From assembly GCA_021736745.1 (NCBI GenBank), contig JAIPFG010000001.1, positions 1 through 52,253 of the forward strand: 52,253 bases of DNA, written 5' to 3'. The notes below the pieces were generated by a model. That model ran no database searches. It was not told where the DNA came from and saw only the letters and a program-made list of their open reading frames with translations. The translations under genes were made by a program, and so were the position numbers. The DNA is from Pseudomonadales bacterium. Lineage in GTDB: Bacteria > Pseudomonadota > Gammaproteobacteria > Pseudomonadales > IMCC2047. The first letter of the stretch is position 1; the number at the start of each line of letters is the position of its first letter. Positions 1 through 20,360 of this stretch are shown here, one piece after another.

Positions 1-105
1 GTACCCCTGCTTCGTCAGCGAATGTTGGCCATTCAGTTCATCGCCCACCGTGTCGGCCGCTTTCTGGAGCGCCAGGGCCTGTTGGGAAGGGATAATGCAG
101 AGTAA
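1..105 (+). CDS. 3' end of an ORF entering from upstream of the window (...IAHRVGRFLERQGLLGRDNAE*); possibly a truncated transposase remnant
   Basis: Frame +1 is open from base 1 to TAA at 103-105. Only 34 codons are visible. From memory, the RVGRFLERQGLL..RD.AE string resembles an internal segment of IS91-family transposases. This is unverified. Confidence 0.3.
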   Translation, partial: VPLLRQRMLAIQFIAHRVGRFLERQGLLGRDNAE

Positions 106-237
106 ATTGAAATCTGGGTCAAAGGAGTTCTTGCTTCTCAAGAGGGCATTTTTATCAAATCGGTACGATAACTTGTTGAATTATTATAATTATCCGTTAA
201 TCTACCGCCTTTAAAAAGACATTATAAAATCAAAAAT

Positions 238-1539
238 ATGACACGTTATTTCGTTGCTGGGGATGAATTAGTAAAATGGAGCTTTCTAGCTGAACTAAAT
301 CACACTTCCGATCCGAAGGATGCTTTTGATATAGCATGCCTGCTTCCCAGTACGGATTTTAATCTTGTATCCCAACAGTTATTCAATGCAAGACGACTAT
401 TAACGCCAATTATCAATTTAACTGGCATCAGCTGGGACCGAGCTGATTATCACGCCAGCAATCCCTCCCTGGCCGAGATAACGAAAGCGTCCGAAGAATT
501 AGCGCCTCTACTACAAGCAGTGGATCAACTTAACATTCGAGAGAGTGCTGATTATCCGAGTCTCGCCATTCTTGGTATCGCGCATACTCGTGGCAAAATG
601 ATTTCGACTCTGCGTTCAGCCAATATAGCCTGCTTAGTAGATTATCCCTTAATTTCGGGTATCACCGAGCAACGACGCTTACTGGAAGAATTGGCACATT
701 ATGGCCTGCTGGAACGCCAGTATTTTGATCGTTTGCATTTTTGTGGGCAATGCGGGTCATCCCGCCTCCATGTGCGCGAGGAGTGTATCTCTTGTCGCAG
801 CAGCAATTTACAAGCAGTCAGCCTGGTTCATCACTATCGTTGTGGATATCAGGCTGTTGAAACTGCTTTTCGCCATTCGCAAAACCTCGAATGTCCCAAA
901 TGTCATAAGCAATTACGGCATTATGGTGTTGATTATGACAAACCATCATCGGTACACAGTTGCGGCTCCTGTGGCGAAATATCTGACGAACCGGCTATTG
1001 GTTTTGTGTGTAATGATTGCTCAAAACATGAAGATGGAGCCAACATTTCAGTCCGTGAATGGCATCACTACCACCTGACACCCAGCGGAGCCGCAGCGCT
1101 GCAAGCAGGCTTTTTACCGCAAAATTCTTTACAAAGTATGTTAAGCCAGACTGTGGGGATTTGTCCCACAGCCGAGTTTGCTTCCTCCGCCGCCTATCTT
1201 TCCAAAATCGCAGAGCGCTTCTCGCGTCCTCTCAGCGCCTTGATATTACAGATCAACAACTTTGATGAATTACGTAACAATTTTGGCGTTTCCAACCTTG
1301 CGAGTGCCTTTATGTTGCTTGGCGAAGTTGTTTCCCAAATTGTTCGTTCCACTGATCTGGTCGCAGCCAAAGGGCAGTGCATTTATCTCTTATTACCAGA
1401 AACAAGTTTCGATAACCTGGATATCGTAATGCAACGGCTGCAGGAGGAAACAACCCGCCACATTTCCTTACCGCTAGACCTGAGCATTAAGCGCTATCAG
1501 ACAGAAACCATAACGGAATTATTGAGAGATATCCTCTAA
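238..1539 (+). CDS. Cys-rich (tandem zinc-ribbon-like) protein with a C-terminal degenerate GGDEF-like domain; putative c-di-GMP receptor
   Basis: 433 aa ORF. CxxC pairs at aa 169/172, 183/186, 219/222, 242/245 and 258/261. The C-terminus aligns by eye to a GGDEF fold: RSTD (aa 370-373), 5 residues, then GQCIY in place of GGDEF. Its stop overlaps the next start (TAATG). Confidence 0.75.
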   Translation: MTRYFVAGDELVKWSFLAELNHTSDPKDAFDIACLLPSTDFNLVSQQLFNARRLLTPIINLTGISWDRADYHASNPSLAEITKASEELAPLLQAVDQLNIRESADYPSLAILGIAHTRGKMISTLRSANIACLVDYPLISGITEQRRLLEELAHYGLLERQYFDRLHFCGQCGSSRLHVREECISCRSSNLQAVSLVHHYRCGYQAVETAFRHSQNLECPKCHKQLRHYGVDYDKPSSVHSCGSCGEISDEPAIGFVCNDCSKHEDGANISVREWHHYHLTPSGAAALQAGFLPQNSLQSMLSQTVGICPTAEFASSAAYLSKIAERFSRPLSALILQINNFDELRNNFGVSNLASAFMLLGEVVSQIVRSTDLVAAKGQCIYLLLPETSFDNLDIVMQRLQEETTRHISLPLDLSIKRYQTETITELLRDIL

Positions 1540-2798
1540 TGCTGGCTGATGTCATCGACATTATCAACCAAATGGATATTGATACGTTTTTCTTTATGTT
1601 CTGGTATCTCATCATTTTTGATGCCCCGCGCTACCTTTTCAGCTTAATTGCTATCATCTTCTCCCTGGTCCTTGAACGAAAAAGCCAATATCCAGCACTG
1701 AACAAGCCCGTGAGTCTGATGCTGGTTGGTCATAACGAAGCTCAAGGCTTGGAGCGAAGCATTCTGTCATTGGTTGAGCAAACACATCGTCAAATTCAGA
1801 TTGTCGTGGTCGACGATGGCTCTTCGGATAATACCGCTTATGTTGCCAATCGGTTAAAACAACAGGGATACATTGACGTTTTCCTTTCCACGGGTATCCG
1901 TGGTGGCAAGGCTGCAGCGCTTAATCTCGGCCTGGAGTTTTGTCGGCATGAAATAATTGTGTGCGCCGACATGGACACCTCTTTTGATCGCGACGCTATT
2001 GAGCGATTGACGAGTCGCTTCGTTGACCCATCTGTAGGTGCGGTCGCCGGCAATTTATATCCAAGGAATAGTTTCTATAATCTGATTACCCGGCTTCAGG
2101 CATTAGAATACTTGATGAGTATTTCTCTTGGCCGACGTTTTACCGCGATGATGGGAATACTGACCATTGTCTCCGGTGCCTTTGGAGCATCCCGTAAACA
2201 GGCGTTGTTGGCCGTTGGTGGCTGGGATGTTGGCCCCGGCGACGATGGCAATGTCACCTATAAACTTAGACGATCCGGCTGGCGTATTAACTTTGCCCAT
2301 GACGCCTGGGCAGCGACCAATGTTCCCACCACTACAACAGGCTATATTAAGCAGCGCATGCGCTGGAACAGAAGCGTGATTCGCTATAAGTTTAGGAAAT
2401 TTCGTTCTGCATACCATCCAGGCTGGTACCGATTTTCGTTTTCCGACATTGTCGCACTGAGCAATATACTGTTTTTTCAGGTGATATTAACTATCAGCTT
2501 CTTCAGCTATCTGCTTTGGTTGTTTTACCAAATGGGTAGCGCAGCGCTCTATATTGTCGCCACCATATCCATTGTTTACCTGATAGAGGATGCTATTAGC
2601 TTTATTGCAGCCTGTTTGATTTATCGATCGAGAGAACCTGAGAAACTGGGGGTTTATTTGCTGGCGAGCACTGTTTTTGAAAGCTATGTTGCCAGAGGTA
2701 TACGCTTTTTCGCCTATATTGATGAGTTGATATTCCGACGCTCATTTAGAGATACCTTTGTCCCACTCAAAGTGAAACATGTTCTGGAGCGATTTTGA
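1539..2798 (+). CDS. Processive family-2 glycosyltransferase (membrane polysaccharide synthase; Alg8/BcsA/PgaC/NodC-like)
   Basis: VVVDDGSSDNT (aa 89-99), CADMD DxD (aa 144-146), GDD (234-236), QRMRW (272-276). Hydrophobic N-terminus and 3-4 C-terminal TM helices. The start overlaps the upstream stop. Confidence 0.9.
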   Translation: MLADVIDIINQMDIDTFFFMFWYLIIFDAPRYLFSLIAIIFSLVLERKSQYPALNKPVSLMLVGHNEAQGLERSILSLVEQTHRQIQIVVVDDGSSDNTAYVANRLKQQGYIDVFLSTGIRGGKAAALNLGLEFCRHEIIVCADMDTSFDRDAIERLTSRFVDPSVGAVAGNLYPRNSFYNLITRLQALEYLMSISLGRRFTAMMGILTIVSGAFGASRKQALLAVGGWDVGPGDDGNVTYKLRRSGWRINFAHDAWAATNVPTTTTGYIKQRMRWNRSVIRYKFRKFRSAYHPGWYRFSFSDIVALSNILFFQVILTISFFSYLLWLFYQMGSAALYIVATISIVYLIEDAISFIAACLIYRSREPEKLGVYLLASTVFESYVARGIRFFAYIDELIFRRSFRDTFVPLKVKHVLERF

Positions 2799-3823
2799 TT
2801 ACAAGGCTAAGGAAAAAACAGCGGGTTGATAAACTTCAATCTGAATCAAGAGGCAATAAGGGAACCGTTGGTCGTTGGGTATATCTTATTCTGGCATCCT
2901 GTCTGCTACTCTGGTTGTTGGATACCTTTTTCGGTAAATACATCTTTTTTCGTGCTGACGGCATGGTCATGCGTGATGTTAGCACCATAGCAGTCAGTTA
3001 TACTGCCGCTGTTGACAAGCTAAACGTAGAGGAAGGTAAACCGGCAAAAGCTGGAAAGATGCTGGTACAGCTCAATTCGATTGATATTCTGAAGCAGCTG
3101 GGTGATCTGTCTATCAAAACCGCAGAAGTAAGAAGCCGAATCGCGGAACTACACAGTCGACAGAGCCAACTGAATAAAATGCGGCCCCTCGCAGACGAGC
3201 AGGTTAGAAAAATAGCAAAACTACGCGAAACTGAAGAGCGCGCGATTGCCAAGGGGCTTGTTGATACACGTAAATTATCAGAATTTTTAGAGGATGAATT
3301 CAACAGCCGAATGACCCGGGAAAAACTGCTTGGCGAACAAAGCAGTATCGGACAAGAGACTACGGCATTACGTGAGATCGAAAGCAGTTTGCAAAATAGC
3401 ATCAATAGGATAAATACTGCTTACGCAAACGGTATTGTGGTGGCACCAAAGGATGTTACTGTATCAAGAGTTTATGTCAATGAAGGCAGTGTCGTAAAAA
3501 GTGGAGAACCCTTGCTCGAGTTACTTTCAGGAGATTCCTATGTCCTAGCTTATGTGACTCCCGGCTCAGTATATATTGCCGAAGTCGGTGAAACTGTCAG
3601 CGTTAAATACGGACTGAAAACGCTAAAAGGGAAAATAGCACAAGTTTTCCCCATATCTGCACGATTGCCATTAGAGTTTCAACGGACCTTTAGACCGCAA
3701 GAGCGTACCCAGGTTATGCGTGTTGATTTTGCTCCCAACCAAGATATTCCCGCTACCTTTACCAAGGCTAGGGTAGTTACCGCAGGCTTAATACCCAGGT
3801 GGATAGATGGGCTGTTTAACTAA
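2795..3823 (+). CDS. HlyD-family membrane-fusion (periplasmic adaptor) protein
   Basis: Single N-terminal TM (WVYLILASCLLLWLL), lipoyl-like halves flanking a long charged coiled coil, and a C-terminal beta-barrel-like region. The TTG start overlaps the GT2 stop (TTGA). Confidence 0.8.
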   Translation: MITRLRKKQRVDKLQSESRGNKGTVGRWVYLILASCLLLWLLDTFFGKYIFFRADGMVMRDVSTIAVSYTAAVDKLNVEEGKPAKAGKMLVQLNSIDILKQLGDLSIKTAEVRSRIAELHSRQSQLNKMRPLADEQVRKIAKLRETEERAIAKGLVDTRKLSEFLEDEFNSRMTREKLLGEQSSIGQETTALREIESSLQNSINRINTAYANGIVVAPKDVTVSRVYVNEGSVVKSGEPLLELLSGDSYVLAYVTPGSVYIAEVGETVSVKYGLKTLKGKIAQVFPISARLPLEFQRTFRPQERTQVMRVDFAPNQDIPATFTKARVVTAGLIPRWIDGLFN

Positions 3824-4707
3824 TTATCGCTAATTATCAAGTTTGCTCAGGCAGCACTCTGTAATTATGCTCAAAGCACTCTTTTGTTTGCCAGAAAGCG
3901 ATAGGACTCAGCAACCATAATACAATTAGGCTAGGTATTGCCATTGTTGATGACGAGTTTATTGTACTAAGTCTGGAAAGTATAAGTGTGAGAGGGTGCT
4001 AGCCAACAACGACAAAGAGATGCGCATTGTCACAGAGGACTATAATCTTGTTGAAGGGAGTCATAAATTTTCTCCGCATCAGCATCACACTCAATCAAAC
4101 ATCAAGCATATCGGAAGCTCGTAACCCATCGCTTGTATCCCATTGACAGGGCAAGTCTGGTTGAGTTCTGTTTGCTCGATAGTCATGCCAACGAACCCGT
4201 TCATGCCAATACAAAAAATTAATGCGCTATATTAGCTGAATCAAAGTAAAAAAAGAAAAGGAAGTTGAAAGCTAGTATTAGACATTCTGTTGTTTATAGC
4301 GAATAGGGATTTATCCTTCCTCTACAAAAAATTAAGGAGTTGTCGGAACCTGAGTAGCGAAAAGAGAGGGTTGCGGGCTATTTCTCAGAATATTTGAGAC
4401 ATTCTCAGAGGTTAGCATTTCACAAAAAATATTTAAAAATTAAGTGATAAATGTTCTATTGAGCTTTCCGAAGTCTTTCAAAATGTTGCCAGGAAAGGAT
4501 TTGAATTTTTAAGAGTGTGAATTATGCGCTACTTGAAAAAGTAAAATTTCAACATGAATGTTAAAATTTTAAATTAATTATAAAAATTTTTGGTAATGGC
4601 ATGCTCTATGAAGAAACAGTTTAAGTTATTTAAAATTAATAAATAATCAAGTGAGAGTTATCTTCGGATAGCGCTCTTCCTCAGTTTTTGGGTGACTACT
4701 GTCGATC

Positions 4708-5190
4708 ATGATGAATCAGGAAATATTGAATTCCATCCATGAAAAATGGATGCTCGAAGCTCTTTATTTGGCGCAGCTGGCAGAGCAGCAAGATGAAGTG
4801 CCTGTCGGTGCGGTTGTGGTTTTGGACAATCAAATCATTGGGCGCGGCTTTAATCAGCCGATTTCCGCCAACGATCCCACCGCACATGCTGAGGTTATGG
4901 CGTTGCGTGATGCCGCCAAGCATCAAGGTAACTACCGGCTGGTTGATTGTACCCTCTATGTCACGATCGAACCCTGCGCTATGTGTGCTGGTGCCATGGT
5001 ACACGCTCGCATTAAACAATTGGTTTATGGGGCTAGCGAACCCAAATCGGGGGTTATTACCAGTCATCTCAAGTTGCTTGATGCTGGACATCTGAATCAT
5101 AAGGTTGAGGTGCAGGGCGGTATATTGGCTTCTGAATGTGCTGAACGGATGAGCTTGTTTTTTAAACGCAGGCGTGAGCAGAAGCGATAA
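4708..5190 (+). CDS. tadA: tRNA-specific adenosine deaminase
   Basis: CDA zinc motifs HAEVMALR and PCAMCAGA. Size of about 160 aa. An alternative ATG lies one codon downstream. Confidence 0.9.
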   Translation: MMNQEILNSIHEKWMLEALYLAQLAEQQDEVPVGAVVVLDNQIIGRGFNQPISANDPTAHAEVMALRDAAKHQGNYRLVDCTLYVTIEPCAMCAGAMVHARIKQLVYGASEPKSGVITSHLKLLDAGHLNHKVEVQGGILASECAERMSLFFKRRREQKR

Positions 5191-5228
5191 TTTAAATAAT
5201 TTCTGGCAGACGTTTCTGAAACGTACGA

Positions 5229-6533
5229 CTAACTGATAATCGTTGTTCTCTGTGTTCTGGCGATATGTTCCTTAACTAGTTCCGGTACCCCCGCCTCGTC
5301 AGCAAATGTGGGCCACTCACGTATCGCTTGTTGTACCTGGGCGAGTATTTCCAGCGCCCGGCCGCGTCGCATCGAGGCATTTTTTGCATAGGCGATAAAA
5401 TCATCGAGATGAAAATTATCCCTTTTTCCGTTGAGTGACATCTGATGAAGCCCGGTCCAAGCGCCGGTTGGATTATAGCTATAGGTAAGATCAAAGGCGG
5501 GGGATAAAGACCAATTGCCTGTTTTATCCATCAGAAAGGCAATATTCTTGACATGGTCATCTTGGTTGCGCCCCAGAATATTGAAGCAAAGGCGGCGAAA
5601 TTGTTCTTCGATACTGGCCATGGGTAGCCCCAGTTGACGAATGATATATTGGGCCTGTTCATAGGAGTAGGCTCCTGCCTGATTGAAATCGTAATGGGCG
5701 ATGGCACACAGAGATTGCATATGAATTTTCTGACCAGCATCGGTTCGGTCAAATCTTTTGGTCATAAAGTGGCTACGTCCGTTTTCCTGTAATAACTGGC
5801 ATTCGGTCATGGAGATACCGGCTTGTAGTGCCATCTTGTGATAGGCAAATTCAATAAGACCATATCCCTTCGGGTCTTCGAGTTCTTTGTCTTTATTCCC
5901 GGAGACACCATCGAATTTTAGAAGCCAATAGGAGAAACCTTGCCCGGCGCTAACCTGCCCAGAGCGAACTTCATGGGTTTCCGGGTTCCAGGCGATAATA
6001 GCCTTCGCTCGGGCACCACCGGCAGAAGTCCCGACCCGTAAAATATCCAGTAGTGCTTTTTCTCGTGCCGGACTGCCAAAGGAACTCTCCAATGTGTGAC
6101 GACGGGTTAGAATTTCTCCTGCCAGTTCTACTAGTTTGTTCACTTCAATTTGCTCGGAATCTTTCTGCGAGGGTCCTAAACTAGGGGTAAATTCAAGGGC
6201 CCCCATGCCCCGTTTCCCGGTGTAACAGAGTCGTTCGACCGGATTAAAGCTTTCTGGTGTGCGGCCCTCTCTTGCTAGCCACGTGTCGATAAGTGCATTG
6301 CCAAAACGATCGGGTAGTGAATCCGCCAGTAAACCAGGCAGGCCGTGGAAGGTATGAAAAGGAAGCGTCGGAAAAGCGTATATCTGATCGGACAGTGGCA
6401 TCGTGATAGGGGCAATTTCGATAGCACTGCTAACAAAGCTGGGATCATACTCAAAGTAACCGTAGTTTTTTTCCTTATCCCAACTCACGGCGCCAATGGT
6501 TCGTCCCCAAAGCTGGACGCTGGCAATGGTCAT
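5229..6533 (-). CDS. hipA: Type II toxin HipA-family serine/threonine kinase
   Basis: 434 aa. The N-terminal coupling domain (VQLWGRTIGAVSWD...FEYDP) and a C-terminal kinase core with NQDDHVKNIAF are typical of HipA. There is a 4-nt overlap with the upstream HTH gene. Confidence 0.9.
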   Translation of the reverse strand: MTIASVQLWGRTIGAVSWDKEKNYGYFEYDPSFVSSAIEIAPITMPLSDQIYAFPTLPFHTFHGLPGLLADSLPDRFGNALIDTWLAREGRTPESFNPVERLCYTGKRGMGALEFTPSLGPSQKDSEQIEVNKLVELAGEILTRRHTLESSFGSPAREKALLDILRVGTSAGGARAKAIIAWNPETHEVRSGQVSAGQGFSYWLLKFDGVSGNKDKELEDPKGYGLIEFAYHKMALQAGISMTECQLLQENGRSHFMTKRFDRTDAGQKIHMQSLCAIAHYDFNQAGAYSYEQAQYIIRQLGLPMASIEEQFRRLCFNILGRNQDDHVKNIAFLMDKTGNWSLSPAFDLTYSYNPTGAWTGLHQMSLNGKRDNFHLDDFIAYAKNASMRRGRALEILAQVQQAIREWPTFADEAGVPELVKEHIARTQRTTIIS

Positions 6534-6880
6534 TCTTTATCCCCCCAGGACCAGGACGGCGTTACTTGTTTTTCCTTACTTGGCAAAGAGGCGCGTTGTC
6601 TGACTTTCCCGCGCATTTTTGCCTGCTGAATGGGACTAATGACCGGTGCCGGCGCCAGACCGTCGATCCGTTCAAATAAATCGAGTGCGCGCAGAACGCG
6701 GATGAAGTTGGACAGCTGGGTAGATCGACCTTTTTCCAGGCGCTGGATCGTGGGTACGGACACGCCTGCTTCCATGGCCAAAGCTTCCTGGGTCATGTTT
6801 TTATTCAAACGATAACGGGCGATTCTGGACCCCAGCTCGAGTAAGACCGCCTTATCGGACATCTCTTTTGAAATAGTCAT
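6530..6880 (-). CDS. hipB: HipB-like XRE-family HTH antitoxin
   Basis: XRE helix-turn-helix (MTQEALAMEAGVSVPTIQRLEKG). 116 aa. ATGA overlap with hipA. Confidence 0.85.
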   Translation of the reverse strand: MTISKEMSDKAVLLELGSRIARYRLNKNMTQEALAMEAGVSVPTIQRLEKGRSTQLSNFIRVLRALDLFERIDGLAPAPVISPIQQAKMRGKVRQRASLPSKEKQVTPSWSWGDKE

Positions 6881-7036: not shown

Positions 7037-8197
7037 TTATTCATATCCGGTCATTTCCAAATAACCACGTCCCAGTTCTTGTTTCCCCTCTGCGTCAAAG
7101 ATGATGATCGCACCTTCCCAATATTTAATACTGACATCCAGCCATTGGTTGGGAATGGCGGCTTGGATGATCCACTCTTTGGCAGTAACAGCCGTAGCTG
7201 TATTTAGCCTGATGCGCCAGCGAATAGGATAGTTGGCACCATTCGGTGCCCGCCACCATGACAGTGGCGTGAGCTGGATATCTTGGGGATGAAGAGTGGT
7301 TTTTTGACTCTCTGGATCAACCCAGCTACCCAAACTGCTGGGGTCAAGATTGCCGTTTTTTTGTCGAAGTTGATAAAACATCATTTCTTCGCCGGAATGG
7401 AATTGCAGAGAGAACCAATCCCATCCTTGTTGGTCCTTATCCAGGAGACTGGTGCCCCACTCGCGGTCGAGCCAGCTTGAACCGGTCACTTGGTGGGGTT
7501 TCCCTCCAATGATGATTTCCCCTGAGCTGGCGAGACGGGTAATGGAGTAATAGTACGAAGCATTCCCTGGTGTTGGGCTTTTCCGGCTTAGACCTTGTTC
7601 ACCCTGTAAAACGACTTTTTTTTCTGGGGTGATAGTTAATGCAAGGGAAAAGTGCTCGCTGTTGATGTTGATTTTCCAGGGAAAATCATTACCGCTAGCG
7701 ATTATGCTCCAGTCATCGAGCCAAAATGACAGAGGACTCACCGTATGCCCGGCCAGGCCAACCGCTTCCCGTGAAAATCGTTCTTCATGCCAATGCTTCC
7801 CGGCCTCAATATCGGTTATGGCCGTGTGTGCCATCCAAACGTGATCAGCGGCCCAGTGTGATTCTCGCTGTTTGTCTTCGGGCGTTAGGGCGATACGAAA
7901 AAAAGTGACCTGATATCCGAAGCGCTTACCGTTAGCGTCCATTACGTTACCGGTAAGATACCACCATTCGTTTTTATAGCCGGCGTGGGTGGCATGATCC
8001 TGGGGGAAGGTAAAGGAGCGGGGCGTAAGCACAGACTGATAGCCCTGAATATCTTGATTCTGGAGTGCTCGTTGCAGTGAATCATTATCCGGTGATCGGT
8101 GACAACCAGCCAGTAGGAAGCTGAAAATGTATAGGGCTAACCCGATGAGACAACGGGGTAAGCCAATAGGGCGGAGATCTGTTGCTGGTAACGGCAT
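7037..8197 (-). CDS. AttH/CrtC-like lipocalin-domain lipoprotein
   Basis: Lipobox LLAGC. The motifs EWWY, WLDREWG and GRGYLEMTGY are typical of the AttH/hydroxyneurosporene-synthase-like family. That family commonly follows FtsX-type ABC permeases. Confidence 0.8.
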   Translation of the reverse strand: MPLPATDLRPIGLPRCLIGLALYIFSFLLAGCHRSPDNDSLQRALQNQDIQGYQSVLTPRSFTFPQDHATHAGYKNEWWYLTGNVMDANGKRFGYQVTFFRIALTPEDKQRESHWAADHVWMAHTAITDIEAGKHWHEERFSREAVGLAGHTVSPLSFWLDDWSIIASGNDFPWKININSEHFSLALTITPEKKVVLQGEQGLSRKSPTPGNASYYYSITRLASSGEIIIGGKPHQVTGSSWLDREWGTSLLDKDQQGWDWFSLQFHSGEEMMFYQLRQKNGNLDPSSLGSWVDPESQKTTLHPQDIQLTPLSWWRAPNGANYPIRWRIRLNTATAVTAKEWIIQAAIPNQWLDVSIKYWEGAIIIFDAEGKQELGRGYLEMTGYE

Positions 8198-10753
8198 TTA
8201 TTCTTCCCGCAACGATTGGGCGATCGCCAAGCTTGCAGCGTGTTTTGCGGGATAGACGCCAGCCAATAACGATGCGAATACAGCCAAGGCAACGCCTTCA
8301 AACAAAATATTCAGCGAGAGGTGATGCCCCATGCTCCAGCCAAATGAACGGAGATTAATGACATCGATCAGCAGCATCGACATCAGATATCCCAGTGGAA
8401 TCGCTAATATCCCGGCAAACAATCCCATCATGCCGGTTTGTAAATAGATAATGCGTTTGACCTCCTGCGGCGTGGCACCGGTAGCACGTAACAAAGCAAA
8501 CTCGGCGGTGCGTTCTAGCTGAAGCGCCATTAGGGCACTGAGTGTGCCGACGAAAGCAACCAGTACGGATAACAGGCGCAAAACATGGGTGATGGTAAAG
8601 GTGCGATCAAAAATAGCCAGCGATGATTTCTTGATTTCAGCATTATCGGTTATTCGTAACTTGGCTTGGGGTAATGTTACATTTTCAGGTTTAAGGCTAT
8701 GACGACGGCTCAATTGCTTAATTTGATCGACTAAGGCGAGGGAGTCTACGCCCTGATCTCGGTAGATACCCAGAGCGGATATGGAATTGTCTTGCCAGAG
8801 TTTTTGATAAAGGGGTAGCGGCATCAGAATCAGACCATGGCTGGAAGTATAGTCGTAAAAAATACCCAACACAGTAAATGACATGTTCCCCTGCTCATTG
8901 CGCAGAGTCAGTTGATCGTTGATGCTCAGTTCATGGTGAAAAGCCAGGGGTTCCGAAATCAGTACCCCCTTGCCAGAAAAGAAATCGGCACGTACCGGCC
9001 CGGGATCACTTCCCTTCAAATTAAAGCCACGGGTATTGGCTGCGTTGTTGGAAATTGCCATCAAGCGCATTGGCCCCCACTGGCTCTCCACTTTGGTCAT
9101 TCGGTTTAGCCATACTGAGGATACCCCCGGTTGATGTTCAACATCCTGAATGAGTCCCTTGGGTATTCCTGCATCGGTACGATGACTCATGCGCCCGGGA
9201 AGGCTGATATAGATATCGCTGTTAAGTGATTGATCGAGCCAGTCGGCGACTGAATATCTAAAGCTGTTGATCATGATGCCAACGCCAATTGTGGTGGCGA
9301 TGGCAATGGTGAGCGCCGCAATAGCCAATCCGGTACGGCTTAAACCGGCAGAAATGCTGCGTATGGCGATTCGAGCGATGGGGCCGCTGCGGTTCGTGGC
9401 GAGCAGTTTTTGTGCAATCTGTGCCAATTGTTTTACCCATTGCGGTGTAATCAGGCTGAAACCCAGAACAAGCAAAGCCAGAGCAATAAAACCGATCAGC
9501 AGACTGGATTTTGTACCATAGGCAAGGCCTAGCCCGAGTGCCACCAATAACAGGCCAGTAGTGGTCAGCAGAGGAAGATAGCGCTGTACACGTAACGGCA
9601 AGCTGGAGTGTTGCTGTACACTGACGGGTTGTGAGCGAGCGGCTTCCAGAGCAGGGAGGGCGGCGGCAATCAGACTGGCGAATAGCCCCAATAACAACCC
9701 CTTTAACAAAGACGCCGACGGGATAATAAACTGTGTTACCTCCAAACTGTAATAAAGGTCGTTGATTGTACGCGTAACCAGCTGTACCAAGCCTTGGCCT
9801 AACAGGATACCCAAGAGTAAACCAACAATAGCGCCAATTAATCCGAGCATAGCTGCTTCCGCTAATACGAGGAGGAAAAGTTGGTGACGCGTAGTCCCCA
9901 AAGCCCGCAAGGTACCCAGCGTTGCTCGCCGCTGTAATACCATGAAAGTCATCGTGTTATAGATAAGGAAACCGCCAACCAGCAAAGCCAGTAAACTCAT
10001 GGCGCTGAGGTTGGCATGAAATGCCTGAGTCATTTGGGTTAATGCCTGGTGGCGTGAACCTGTCTCAACCAACTCCAACGAGGATGGCAGAAGCATTTTA
10101 ACCCGCCTTACTTCGTCATCAGTTTTCAGGATCAGATTTATACGGTCAAGAAAGCCAATGCGGTTTAATAACTCCTGAGCGACGGCAATATCGGCGAGTA
10201 GTAGACCTTGTGCGGAGAGGGGGTGAGAGGCGGGAATCAGTTGAGTTATGTGTAACCGATAGTTGTGGTTGCCCTGCATGGCAATCAGTTGGTCGCCTGG
10301 TCTGACCTGCAAAATATCGGCCGTGGGTTGCGCTATGGCAATACTATTGGGCATTACCAGTAGTTCACGTCCTGCCTGTGCCGAGAGGTTAATGGCACTG
10401 GTGCGAAATTGTTGTTCGGCGAAGGGGTCGACGCCGAGCAGGGTATAGCTTTTTCCACTGATCAGTAATTGCCCGGAAACCATAGGGGCAATGTGACGAA
10501 TAGCATGTTGGGTACGCAATTCTGTGTAAAAGGATTCCGGAACACCCTGCGTGCCACCCACAATATAATGTGTAGAATTGCCGGTCACCATTTGCAGAGA
10601 CAGATCGAAGGATCGTTTGGCGCTGAGGTTGGCCAAGTCTACGGCCACAACGACCGACACGCCAAGGGCGATGCCGACGATCGTTAACCAACTTTGCCAG
10701 GGGTGACGGTTTAAGTAGCGAATGCTGGTACGTGCCAGCAGAGACATTACCAT
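8198..10753 (-). CDS. ABC transporter permease with duplicated FtsX domains (YbbP-like)
   Basis: 851 aa. Two 4-TM FtsX-like blocks are separated by large extracytoplasmic regions. It overlaps the ATPase gene by 7 nt. Confidence 0.9.
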   Translation of the reverse strand: MVMSLLARTSIRYLNRHPWQSWLTIVGIALGVSVVVAVDLANLSAKRSFDLSLQMVTGNSTHYIVGGTQGVPESFYTELRTQHAIRHIAPMVSGQLLISGKSYTLLGVDPFAEQQFRTSAINLSAQAGRELLVMPNSIAIAQPTADILQVRPGDQLIAMQGNHNYRLHITQLIPASHPLSAQGLLLADIAVAQELLNRIGFLDRINLILKTDDEVRRVKMLLPSSLELVETGSRHQALTQMTQAFHANLSAMSLLALLVGGFLIYNTMTFMVLQRRATLGTLRALGTTRHQLFLLVLAEAAMLGLIGAIVGLLLGILLGQGLVQLVTRTINDLYYSLEVTQFIIPSASLLKGLLLGLFASLIAAALPALEAARSQPVSVQQHSSLPLRVQRYLPLLTTTGLLLVALGLGLAYGTKSSLLIGFIALALLVLGFSLITPQWVKQLAQIAQKLLATNRSGPIARIAIRSISAGLSRTGLAIAALTIAIATTIGVGIMINSFRYSVADWLDQSLNSDIYISLPGRMSHRTDAGIPKGLIQDVEHQPGVSSVWLNRMTKVESQWGPMRLMAISNNAANTRGFNLKGSDPGPVRADFFSGKGVLISEPLAFHHELSINDQLTLRNEQGNMSFTVLGIFYDYTSSHGLILMPLPLYQKLWQDNSISALGIYRDQGVDSLALVDQIKQLSRRHSLKPENVTLPQAKLRITDNAEIKKSSLAIFDRTFTITHVLRLLSVLVAFVGTLSALMALQLERTAEFALLRATGATPQEVKRIIYLQTGMMGLFAGILAIPLGYLMSMLLIDVINLRSFGWSMGHHLSLNILFEGVALAVFASLLAGVYPAKHAASLAIAQSLREE

Positions 10754-11445
10754 GCGAAATCGCCTGCCCGTTCGGCCAGTTGGCCCTGTTCGAGGGTCAG
10801 GATCCGATTGGCACCCTGAGCAACCGCCTGACTATGGGTTACCAGAATCAGGGTAACACCCTCATGGGTCACCAGTCGGTTGAGTAATGCAATCACTTCG
10901 CGCCCGATTTGCGCATCGAGATTGCCTGTTGGTTCGTCCGCCAGTACCAGCGAGGGTTGGTGGGCCAGTGCACGGGCAATGGCAACACGCTGCTGCTCTC
11001 CTCCTGAGAGTTGATCGGGAAATCGTTTGGCGAGAAGAGATAAACCCACCTGATCCAGCAGGGAATCGACTCTCGTTTTGATATCCCGTGGCGCCCAGTG
11101 GTTTAATTCCAATGCAAGGGCAATATTTTCCGACACAGTCAAGGTTGGGACCAAATGGAAAAATTGGTAGATAACGCCGATATGCTGGCGTCGAAACAGG
11201 GTGAGTGCAGGCTCGCCCAAGCGGGTTATCTCCTGGTTATCGATCAGGATGCTACCATCGTTGGGTTTGTCGATGCCGCTGATGAGGTTGAGCAGGGTCG
11301 ATTTTCCTGAACCGCTGCGCCCCAGAAGAGCAACTGATTCCCCGGCTTGTACTTCGAGATTAACGCCATCGAGGATTAAACGAGTTTGATCACCCTCTTT
11401 AACCCGGTAGTGCAAAGCTCGAATTTTAACCAATGTTTGTGTCAT
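10747..11445 (-). CDS. ABC transporter ATP-binding protein (YbbA/LolD/MacB-type)
   Basis: Walker A GRSGSGKST, signature LSGGEQQRVAIARAL, Walker B LVLADEPTGNLD. Confidence 0.95.
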   Translation of the reverse strand: MTQTLVKIRALHYRVKEGDQTRLILDGVNLEVQAGESVALLGRSGSGKSTLLNLISGIDKPNDGSILIDNQEITRLGEPALTLFRRQHIGVIYQFFHLVPTLTVSENIALALELNHWAPRDIKTRVDSLLDQVGLSLLAKRFPDQLSGGEQQRVAIARALAHQPSLVLADEPTGNLDAQIGREVIALLNRLVTHEGVTLILVTHSQAVAQGANRILTLEQGQLAERAGDFAW

Positions 11446-19343: not shown

Positions 19344-20360
19344 TTAATCGGCCAGTACAATTTTTGACCAATCGTGATTAACCGATGTGAGCAACCTGTT
19401 CAGTGCTTTACATTTATCCTGGTAATCATGTGCGTTTTTATCCCAGCGTTGCTTGACGCTTAAATGCAGCGGCCCGTTAATGACGCGCACAATTTGCCTG
19501 CGAGCCAAATAAAGACCTTTGCGCTCGTTGTGTGCTTTGTCCAGGGGGTTGGGCTTGATCCTGTTGAGTAGATGTGGTTCGAATTCAAGGCCGAATTTGG
19601 ATGCTTCTTTGATGATCCAGTCGCTGGCGCAATCACTGAGTCCGGATTCACTATAGCCGCCACCGATATCTGAATGAACGCCCGCAAACCAGACCTGTTG
19701 AATATCAAGGCCTGGCTTAGTACTCCAGAGTGAGGGCTCAAAATCCTCCCGGTTTTCATCAATTGAAACGGCATGGCGTGCATGTTGAATAATTTTGCTG
19801 GGTTCGGTGTCATGGAAAAGAAATTCGCGTTCCCCCAGTGTCCCCCAAAAAGGTACGGGAATACCCAATGCTCCAACGGTGTCCCAAACGCCGACGAACG
19901 CTATCGGAGTAATGTCCGCCACAGCGTAAGCTTGACGGAATTGGATGGCGGCTTTTTGACTGGGACTGCTGGATTGAGTGCGTTTGCGGTAGAGTATAAA
20001 AGCCTCGGGTATCCTATCGGCATGTTCACGCTTAAGTAATCCACAATTGCGAATAAAACCTGCCAGCGATCGGGCTGTGTAAGCACCGCGGCTAAAGCCA
20101 AAAAAGAAAAGTTGATCACCAGGGTCGTAGTTGTGAACAATAAAGCGATAACAATCCATAATATTTTTATCGATGCCAGCGCCAGTAATACCGCCCGCAA
20201 TTTTCTTACGATCTGTACCCACGCCCCAATCATAAAAGCTTATTTGCTCGATCTTGTCGGCTCGCGGGCGTATCGCTCTTGCAACACGTAACACATTGGT
20301 TGCGTTTCCCTGTTCGGGTGAATTCCAGGTGCCATCGGCACATATCACGATTCTTTTCAT
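19344..20360 (-). CDS. DUF2235 alpha/beta hydrolase (Tle1-like phospholipase fold)
   Basis: RIVICADGTWN and the nucleophile elbow FFFGFSRGAYTAR are family hallmarks. AAGGAG RBS upstream. Confidence 0.85.
   Translation of the reverse strand: MKRIVICADGTWNSPEQGNATNVLRVARAIRPRADKIEQISFYDWGVGTDRKKIAGGITGAGIDKNIMDCYRFIVHNYDPGDQLFFFGFSRGAYTARSLAGFIRNCGLLKREHADRIPEAFILYRKRTQSSSPSQKAAIQFRQAYAVADITPIAFVGVWDTVGALGIPVPFWGTLGEREFLFHDTEPSKIIQHARHAVSIDENREDFEPSLWSTKPGLDIQQVWFAGVHSDIGGGYSESGLSDCASDWIIKEASKFGLEFEPHLLNRIKPNPLDKAHNERKGLYLARRQIVRVINGPLHLSVKQRWDKNAHDYQDKCKALNRLLTSVNHDWSKIVLAD

Follow-up and report, generated by a model that had tools for sequence, protein, structure and literature searches.

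A TackOD1 and degenerate GGDEF protein, a processive glycosyltransferase and a membrane-fusion adaptor as a candidate cyclic di-GMP-gated polysaccharide secretion module in a Pseudomonadales bacterium

A translationally coupled three-gene operon

In a 52,253-nucleotide stretch of DNA from a Pseudomonadales bacterium (contig JAIPFG010000001.1 of assembly GCA_021736745.1, positions 1 to 52,253 of the forward strand; the whole of this stretch is referred to here as the window), three adjoining genes on the + strand encode a soluble protein with a TackOD1 domain and a degenerate GGDEF domain, a family-2 glycosyltransferase (GT2) and a membrane-fusion protein (MFP). The trio is considered here as a candidate polysaccharide secretion module that would be gated by cyclic di-GMP (c-di-GMP). 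The genes, and the domains of the first of them, are as follows:

238..1539, + strand: gene 1, 433 amino acids (aa); soluble protein of three domains, predicted c-di-GMP receptor and regulatory subunit
238..579, + strand: N-domain, gene 1 residues 1-114; alpha/beta, with a beta-alpha pattern in the structure model
580..1122, + strand: TackOD1, gene 1 residues 115-295; five CxxC motifs and one HxxC
1153..1536, + strand: GGDEF-fold domain, gene 1 residues 306-433; active site (A-site) destroyed, inhibitory-site (I-site) residues retained
1539..2798, + strand: gene 2, 419 aa; membrane-embedded processive GT2 (synthase)
2795..3823, + strand: gene 3, 342 aa, TTG start; EmrA/HlyD-type adaptor (MFP) with a single transmembrane (TM) segment

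The genes overlap at both junctions, just as an earlier note on this DNA, made from the sequence by itself, had described. At the first junction, TAATG, the TAA stop codon of gene 1 (1537-1539) and the ATG start of gene 2 (1539-1541) have one base in common, and at the second, a 4-nucleotide (nt) overlap, the TGA of gene 2 (2796-2798) is overlapped by the TTG start of gene 3 (2795-2797), which is preceded by GGAG 5 nt to its 5' side. The trio is a single translationally coupled operon. The further statement of the earlier note, that no porin, modification or precursor genes follow the trio on its 3' side, holds within the window. A scan of positions 1-4800 for promoters and terminators gave counts at the level of the background, and scans of the window with Rfam and for tRNAs gave no match; with no Rfam family in the window, there is no c-di-GMP riboswitch 5' of the trio. 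A reading of the locus as an anti-phage defence system was rejected, and PADLOC gave no match.

Conservation of the gene set

A search seeded with gene 1 recovered 71 genome loci in Alpha- and Gammaproteobacteria, with 61 full-length homologues, 45 of which are followed directly on the 3' side by both partners, first the GT2 and then the adaptor, as in the window. Among the 50 genome loci in which all three genes could be delimited, the junction between genes 1 and 2 is an overlap (-1 or -4 nt) in 39, and the gap between genes 2 and 3 is no larger than 30 nt in 46. Approached from the synthase, the linkage is obligate: a search seeded with the GT2 gave 80 metagenome loci (38-57% identity), with a gene 1 homologue upstream of the GT2 in all 65 that had upstream room and the adaptor directly 3' of it in 65 of the 72 that had downstream room. 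The grouping that the earlier note had proposed from this one stretch is thus seen in other genomes from both starting points.

An exhaustive search with a profile of the N-domain and TackOD1 yielded 2,339 clusters at 50% identity, 819 of them at E<=1e-30, so that the module is common, yet mostly in uncultured lineages. The hosts are for the most part uncultured marine and soil Alpha- and Gammaproteobacteria; those that have been named include Pseudomaricurvus, Marivibrio, Chelativorans, Microvirga, Stappia and Hyphomicrobium. Clustering of flanking open reading frames (ORFs) found no further gene that was kept across the whole family. The recurrent sets of neighbours were kinases, Hpt proteins and response regulators in a clade whose proteins carry a receiver (REC) domain, and a porin with glmU/glmS in one subclade, both of which are described below.

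Four genome loci (L020, L021, L028 and L030) have a gene 1 homologue at ~7.9-9.2 kb and no GT2 or adaptor near it. A membrane protein with a Gate domain (PF07670) is encoded upstream of the homologue in L021, L028 and L030, and downstream of it are ORFs of ~186 aa (L020, L021 and L030) and ~410 aa (L021 and L030). These neighbours may represent another kind of machine on which such proteins act.

Gene 1 joins TackOD1 to a degenerate GGDEF domain

The gene 1 protein is acidic (net charge -11) and has no TM segment, and an AlphaFold2 (AF2) model based on a 21-sequence alignment gave a confident three-domain fold (pLDDT 89.4). The first domain, modelled at pLDDT >90, is possibly flavodoxin- or receiver-like, and two of its residues, D31 and D70, scarcely vary across the family alignment. 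When residues 1-295 were modelled separately (pLDDT 90), Foldseek returned no match in the PDB at E<=1e-3; receiver domains were weak matches for the N-domain (3nnn, probability 0.96, E 0.12). Pfam gave no Response_reg (REC, PF00072) match in the gene 1 of the window, and an hhalign comparison with the REC domains of sister proteins was negative (probability 0.3), for which reason we do not call the N-domain a pseudo-receiver. The earlier note had left the N-terminal region unassigned, and in this it was right, but the region is shorter than was thought, ~114 rather than ~160 aa, since residues 115-160 fall in the TackOD1 model.

The Cys-rich module that follows was described in the earlier note as metal-binding, and it does carry the motifs of zinc sites; it is, however, an already named domain, TackOD1 (PF18551), which Pfam matched with 156.1 bits against a cutoff of 32 (E 1e-45) over residues 115-280, corresponding to profile positions 17-188 of 188. 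The five CxxC motifs (C169/172, C183/186, C219/222, C242/245 and C258/261) and H199xxC202 lead us to predict three Zn(Cys/His)4 sites, and the family alignments show little or no variation at the Cys and His residues of TackOD1. This motif count agrees with the published description of TackOD1, which dates from 2018 and presents the domain, with its 11 conserved Cys, as an output module of response regulators in archaea; its function was there termed 'obscure' (PMC5847659). In Thaumarchaeota, TackOD1 is found in type IV pilus loci (PMC4858521). In the literature searched, the domain appears only in these two comparative-genomics surveys, and neither assigns it a function.

The C-terminus of gene 1 had been proposed to adopt a GGDEF fold, and on this AF2 and Foldseek agree: the model of residues 306-433 matched the GGDEF crystal structures 4urg, 4zve, 3ign and 5euh (E ~1e-6, TMt 0.62-0.69), and the gene 1 family profile matched the GGDEF domain of DosC (E 1e-7) as well as that of 3ign. 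The catalytic motif is lost, KGQCI having taken the place of GGDEF and INNFD that of DxDxFK, and the metal-binding Asp is missing. In the profile alignment, R370-S-T-D373 aligns with the I-site RSSD of DosC, ~5 residues before the GGDEF position, and R400 aligns with the Arg that lies 28 residues past the RxxD Asp in the c-di-GMP-bound structure 3ign. Also retained are R327 and R330, 40-46 residues upstream of RxxD, which we tentatively place, as a lead only, at the positions of PleD R313 and WspR R198.

Among the genome homologues of the RxxD clade, R327, R330, R370, D373, E388, T389 and R400 are each at least 93% conserved, and they are lost in the REC clade. The metagenome sequences obtained with the GT2 seed were gathered through gene 2 and hence independently of gene 1; of 55 such sequences, 45 have RxxD, 32 have R327, R330, R370, D373 and R400 all together, and none has GG[DE]EF, results that strengthen the original suggestion of a dead A-site beside an intact I-site. 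Retention of the ligand-contact residues during drift of the catalytic motif is, by analogy, the pattern of proven receptors such as PssE. PssE has a degenerate GGDEF domain with RxxD, a Kd of 0.79 uM and an essential role in exopolysaccharide (EPS) production (PMC4125290); PelD needs R367, D370 and R402 for c-di-GMP binding, and BcsE, too, has a degenerate GGDEF domain with an I-site (PMC8461298).

Gene 2 encodes the synthase and gene 3 the adaptor

The gene 2 protein contains the motifs DDG92, DMD144, GDD234 and QRMRW272 and, by hydropathy, hydrophobic segments at 24-42 and 299-361; it matched the Pfam families Glycos_transf_2, Glyco_tranf_2_3 and Chitin_synth_2, and its sequence aligns across the catalytic core with PDB entries for hyaluronan and chitin synthases. 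Judged by these similarities it is a processive GT2 like PgaC, NodC and the hyaluronan synthases (HAS). GDD is the HAS-like form of the catalytic motif, PgaC having TED. The best NCBIfam match was PgaC_IcaA (TIGR03937) with 154.7 bits against a cutoff of 422.3, followed by NodC with 88 bits, which was also below its cutoff, and the cellulose-synthase (CelA) models gave ~21 bits. Assignment of gene 2 as a synthase of poly-N-acetylglucosamine (PNAG; PgaC) or of cellulose (CelA) was rejected on the equivalog models, and deacetylase, porin and PgaD-like genes are absent from both the operon and the window. Because the nearest relatives of gene 2 all make beta-glycans that contain N-acetylglucosamine (GlcNAc), the donor is, by analogy, most plausibly a sugar of the UDP-N-acetylhexosamine type. 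Past the last TM helix there is a tail of ~35 aa, and family members show unusually high conservation in the cytosolic C-terminal tail (386-412).

The gene 3 protein has one TM segment (24-42, by hydropathy) and matched HlyD_3 with 31.6 bits against a cutoff of 22.2. Pfam also placed Biotin_lipoyl_2 and HlyD_D23 half-sites at 60-159 and 214-243, and from this spacing we infer a coiled-coil hairpin between the lipoyl half-sites. The protein weakly matched the EmrA and type I HlyD (TIGR01843) subfamily models, below their cutoffs, and the EmrA structure 4tko at E 6e-4. Its cytoplasmic N-tail of 27 aa is basic (net charge +6.5), with R19 conserved in at least 90% of homologues. By analogy, its partner in the outer membrane is probably a TolC-type channel whose gene lies elsewhere in the genome. 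The description of genes 2 and 3 in the earlier note, as a processive GT2 with its full motif set between flanking TM helices and a single-TM MFP, was therefore sound, as was its remark that PilZ is absent: a Pfam search at E<=1 detected PilZ in none of the three proteins.

A sister clade with a different input domain

The gene 1 homologues include proteins of the window type, ~440-480 aa in length and without REC, and longer proteins of ~560-650 aa with an N-terminal REC. RxxD is present in 27 of 38 of the no-REC proteins (absent in 11) and in 1 of 23 of the REC proteins (lost in 22), counts that are not phylogenetically independent, as the RxxD and REC states map to two clades. The REC clade retains the C-terminal domain with other conserved residues (Y339, G350, R358 and D382) and no I-site. 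The GT2 and the adaptor are still downstream in 16 of 23 REC-type loci, and such loci adjoin HisKA/HATPase kinases, Hpt proteins and single-domain response regulators. That TackOD1, the GT2 and the adaptor are constant while the input varies is an argument for a role of gene 1 as a signal-transducing subunit, TackOD1 being its output. TackOD1 thus looks like a constant output module with interchangeable sensory input, and, given a REC-fused clade without the I-site, c-di-GMP would be one of two alternative inputs across the family.

One alphaproteobacterial subclade (L033, L034, L036, L041, L063 and L072, with the genes at ~9.2-16 kb) has a gene for a REC-TackOD1 protein, then one for an HlyD-type adaptor and then Porin_4, and no GT2 lies within 8 kb. 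A few kb further downstream are glmU and glmS in L033, L036, L041 and L072 and a glmS-cluster ORF in L063; in L034 neither glmU nor glmS is found within 6 kb. This arrangement may represent a dedicated outer-membrane component and a link to UDP-GlcNAc, or plain synteny. Beside the REC-TackOD1 gene of L033, a histidine kinase encoded at positions 4222-5382 of that locus (- strand) has an ethylene-receptor-like N-terminal domain (ETR1_N, E 5e-37).

Comparison with known systems

In its dead GGDEF domain with RxxD and a downstream Arg retained, encoded in an EPS operon, gene 1 is like PelD of Pseudomonas, PssE of Listeria and BcsE, which are needed for post-translational activation of their glycosyltransferase complexes (PMC8461298, PMC4125290). 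Control of an EPS synthase by c-di-GMP through a degenerate-GGDEF I-site receptor is already established from these proteins; the PelD-like logic that the earlier note saw in gene 1 accordingly stands as regards the I-site residues, but it is not new, and the REC clade does without the I-site. Gene 1 differs from all three in that it is soluble, has no GAF/TM module, has its GGDEF-like domain fused to TackOD1 (which is in none of them) and has a sister clade in which REC is exchanged for the I-site. The partner synthases are also different: a PgaC/HAS-like GT2 with an MFP here, a BcsA/BcsB-like pair in Pss and BcsA for BcsE, the Pel glycosyltransferase PelF being a member of GT4.

The combination of a processive GT2 and an MFP in a small operon is shared with BgsA/BgsB of Sinorhizobium, the mixed-linkage beta-glucan (MLG) system, which is activated by c-di-GMP and requires for the outer-membrane step, as was shown genetically, a TolC encoded elsewhere (PMC13438883). 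BgsA is reported to bind c-di-GMP via its own C-terminal domain (PMC5567048). BgsA is, however, cellulose-synthase-like, whereas gene 2 matches the CelA models weakly (21 bits) and has a short tail; the gene order is bgsBA in Bgs, in contrast to GT2 before MFP here; and Bgs has no separate receptor protein. Alg8 and Alg44 likewise pair a GT2 with a single-TM protein that has a periplasmic MFP-like domain, and c-di-GMP enters through the non-catalytic partner, Alg44 being a PilZ-TM-MFP protein (PMC8461298). There the PilZ receptor is fused to the MFP, whereas here the MFP has its 27-aa basic tail and the putative receptor is separate, and the trio has neither PilZ nor scaffold genes of the AlgK/E/G/X type. 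PgaCD, NodC and the class I hyaluronan synthases resemble gene 2 in size, TM layout and D/DxD/GDD-or-TED/QxxRW motifs, but gene 2 is far below the PgaC equivalog cutoff and there are no pgaA, pgaB or pgaD genes here. The cyanobacterial cellulose synthase Xcs has HlyD-like and TolC-like partners, and bridging to TolC has been proposed for it (PMC8892547).

With the TackOD1 response regulators of Thaumarchaeota (arCOG06883), gene 1 shares the Pfam domain, the Cys/His pattern and the arrangement of TackOD1 as the C-terminal partner of an input domain. The archaeal genes adjoin an envelope-spanning surface machine, the type IV pilus, as the bacterial genes adjoin the GT2 and MFP. The archaeal proteins are REC-TackOD1 or stand-alone TackOD1, linked to type IV pili, whereas the bacterial proteins have an added degenerate GGDEF domain and are linked to the GT2 and MFP.

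The earlier note knew of no characterised EPS system of this composition, and none came to light here: the trio matched no characterised EPS locus, the literature searched held no account of this gene set, and NCBIfam has no dedicated model for it. The trio is a member of none of the PelD/PssE/BcsE, BgsAB-TolC and Alg8/Alg44 systems. The TackOD1 fusion is unique to the gene 1 family, and what is new is the architecture of the receptor and the module as such.

Proposed mechanism and alternative explanations

We propose that the trio is a minimal synthase-dependent polysaccharide secretion module gated by c-di-GMP, and put the probability of the full mechanistic statement at roughly 0.55. Gene 2 would polymerise a nucleotide sugar and thread the chain through its own membrane channel; gene 3, with its one TM helix as an anchor, would be the periplasmic conduit and dock on a TolC-type channel; and gene 1 would be a cytoplasmic regulatory subunit that holds c-di-GMP at the I-site (R370xxD373, R400 and R327/R330) of its dead GGDEF domain. 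Binding of c-di-GMP would alter the engagement of TackOD1 with the synthase and/or the adaptor and so turn polymer synthesis on. In the sister clade, a phosphorylatable REC fed by the adjacent histidine kinases would act in place of the I-site. Candidate docking surfaces for gene 1, by inference only, are the conserved tail of the GT2 and the basic tail of the adaptor with R19.

A number of observations weigh against this proposal. The Pfam GGDEF match of gene 1, over residues 321-407, is marginal, at 23.9 bits where the cutoff is 23.8, the domain is shorter at its C-terminus than a canonical GGDEF domain, and c-di-GMP binding by gene 1 is a prediction from its residues. TackOD1 is without structural or functional precedent, and how it would act on the synthase is a matter of speculation. 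Nor does gene 2, so far below the PgaC cutoff, allow the polymer to be deduced. Among the 20 other window ORFs that were scanned there are no genes for EPS, for TolC or other outer-membrane components or for c-di-GMP turnover, diguanylate cyclases included. Six no-REC homologues, four of them of the RxxD type (the loci L020, L021, L028 and L030), have neither GT2 nor adaptor, and five REC-type loci have an adaptor and Porin_4 with no GT2 within 8 kb; loci without the GT2 mean that TackOD1 proteins are not exclusively tied to this synthase. The dependence of the RxxD and REC counts on two clades belongs on the same side.

An alternative that we consider unlikely is that gene 1 is a transcription factor, the zinc ribbons of TackOD1 binding DNA and c-di-GMP or phosphorylation tuning transcription of the operon. 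Most response-regulator output domains are DNA-binding, which counts for this explanation, as do the frequent location of regulator genes next to their targets and the presence of RNA polymerase zinc-ribbon subunits among the weak Foldseek matches of residues 1-295. Supporting it further, TackOD1 was defined in archaeal response regulators, some of which have a winged helix-turn-helix, and it resembles double zinc ribbons and the Cys-rich insert of PriA (PMC5847659). Against these points, gene 1 has no DNA-binding Pfam domain, and the TackOD1 domains are neutral to acidic (median net charge -3.5, >+3 in 5 of 65) and the full-length proteins strongly acidic (median -11.5). Moreover, the overlap of genes 1 and 2 is kept in those 39 of 50 loci in two proteobacterial classes, which suggests co-production of stoichiometric subunits, and upstream linkage in 65 of 65 metagenome loci is tighter than in the usual pairs of regulator and target. 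None of these points is decisive. We favour control at the protein level over transcriptional control because of the conserved translational coupling, the obligate adjacency and the acidic-to-neutral charge of TackOD1 and of the whole protein, arguments that are circumstantial.

We think it improbable that gene 1 is a zinc-ribbon scaffold with a constitutive role in structure or assembly, in which the GGDEF-like domain is a relic and RxxD serves folding or an interface. Such a scaffold would fit the persistence of the C-terminal domain in the REC clade with different conserved residues and no I-site, which implies a role beyond c-di-GMP, and would also fit the marginal Pfam GGDEF match and the 11 of 38 no-REC proteins without RxxD. 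It is harder to reconcile with the selective conservation of the residues equivalent to the c-di-GMP contacts of PelD, as the A-site drifts at ~30% overall identity, or with the coincidence of I-site loss and gain of another signal-input domain. The RxxD and Arg positions of gene 1 are presumably c-di-GMP contacts in PleD and WspR too.

The least probable alternative is that the trio makes a short oligosaccharide signal (a NodC-type chito-oligomer) or a periplasmic or cell-bound glycan and not matrix EPS: NodC is the second-best NCBIfam match (88 bits), gene 2 is small (419 aa), the window has none of the modification, hydrolase or tetratricopeptide-repeat/porin genes of the kind found in PNAG, cellulose, alginate and Pel loci, and MFP-TolC systems mostly export small molecules or proteins, but gene 2 has QRMRW and a C-terminal TM bundle, which mark synthases that are processive and form a channel, a GT2 with an MFP (and TolC) is documented for the polymers MLG, alginate and cyanobacterial cellulose, and PgaC is the best-scoring GT2 family model.

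Beyond the c-di-GMP-gated secretion module itself, we tentatively entertain a more general possibility, that TackOD1 is a hitherto unrecognised effector domain that directly gates envelope-spanning machines for surface polymers, in proteobacteria the GT2/MFP exporters and in Thaumarchaeota the type IV pili, and that its input may be exchanged between a c-di-GMP I-site on a dead GGDEF domain and a phosphorylated REC.

Other genes near the trio

The ~880 nt 3' of gene 3 (3824-4700) contain neither an ORF that reaches 60 aa nor a predicted terminator, and gave no match to Rfam or to tRNAs; at the orthologous locus of Pseudomaricurvus the position of this gap is occupied by two small ORFs (110 and 131 aa). 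Next to the ORF-poor gap, on its 3' side, are tadA (4708-5190) and a hipBA toxin-antitoxin pair (5229-6880, - strand), which consists of HipA (HipA_C and Couple_hipA) and an HTH_3 antitoxin. A cluster at 7037-11445 (- strand) encodes a CrtC/AttH-like lipocalin protein, an 851-aa FtsX/MacB-type permease and an ATP-binding cassette (ABC) ATPase. This CrtC/AttH-FtsX-ABC cluster is syntenic with the trio in Pseudomaricurvus alcaniphilus and not in more distant genomes. It directly adjoins the trio in Pseudomaricurvus (L001), and in the window tadA and hipBA separate the two, so that the tadA and hipBA stretch looks like an insertion relative to that genome. Further away, the product of 19344-20360 (- strand) matched PF09994 at E 6e-84, the catalytic domain of Tle1-like phospholipases of the type VI secretion system (T6SS). 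The window ORFs that were scanned include no obvious gene of a T6SS.

Significance for the family

If TackOD1 gates the synthase as proposed, the trio would represent a class of signal-gated EPS system that is widespread and has not been described before, and an orphan signalling domain that crosses the boundary between Bacteria and Archaea would gain its first concrete, testable function. The fusion of TackOD1 to a degenerate GGDEF domain would join the routes by which c-di-GMP reaches synthases: PilZ, the GGDEF domains of the PelD/PssE/BcsE type, the PgaCD interface and the BgsA C-terminus. The I-site and REC clades would be a natural input-swap pair, and so matched systems in which to follow the passage of a signal to the synthase. 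As a compact module of three genes that probably uses the TolC of its host, the trio could be transferred between hosts for the discovery or production of polymers, and, since the hosts are mostly uncultured, the polymer may be an uncharacterised component of their matrix.

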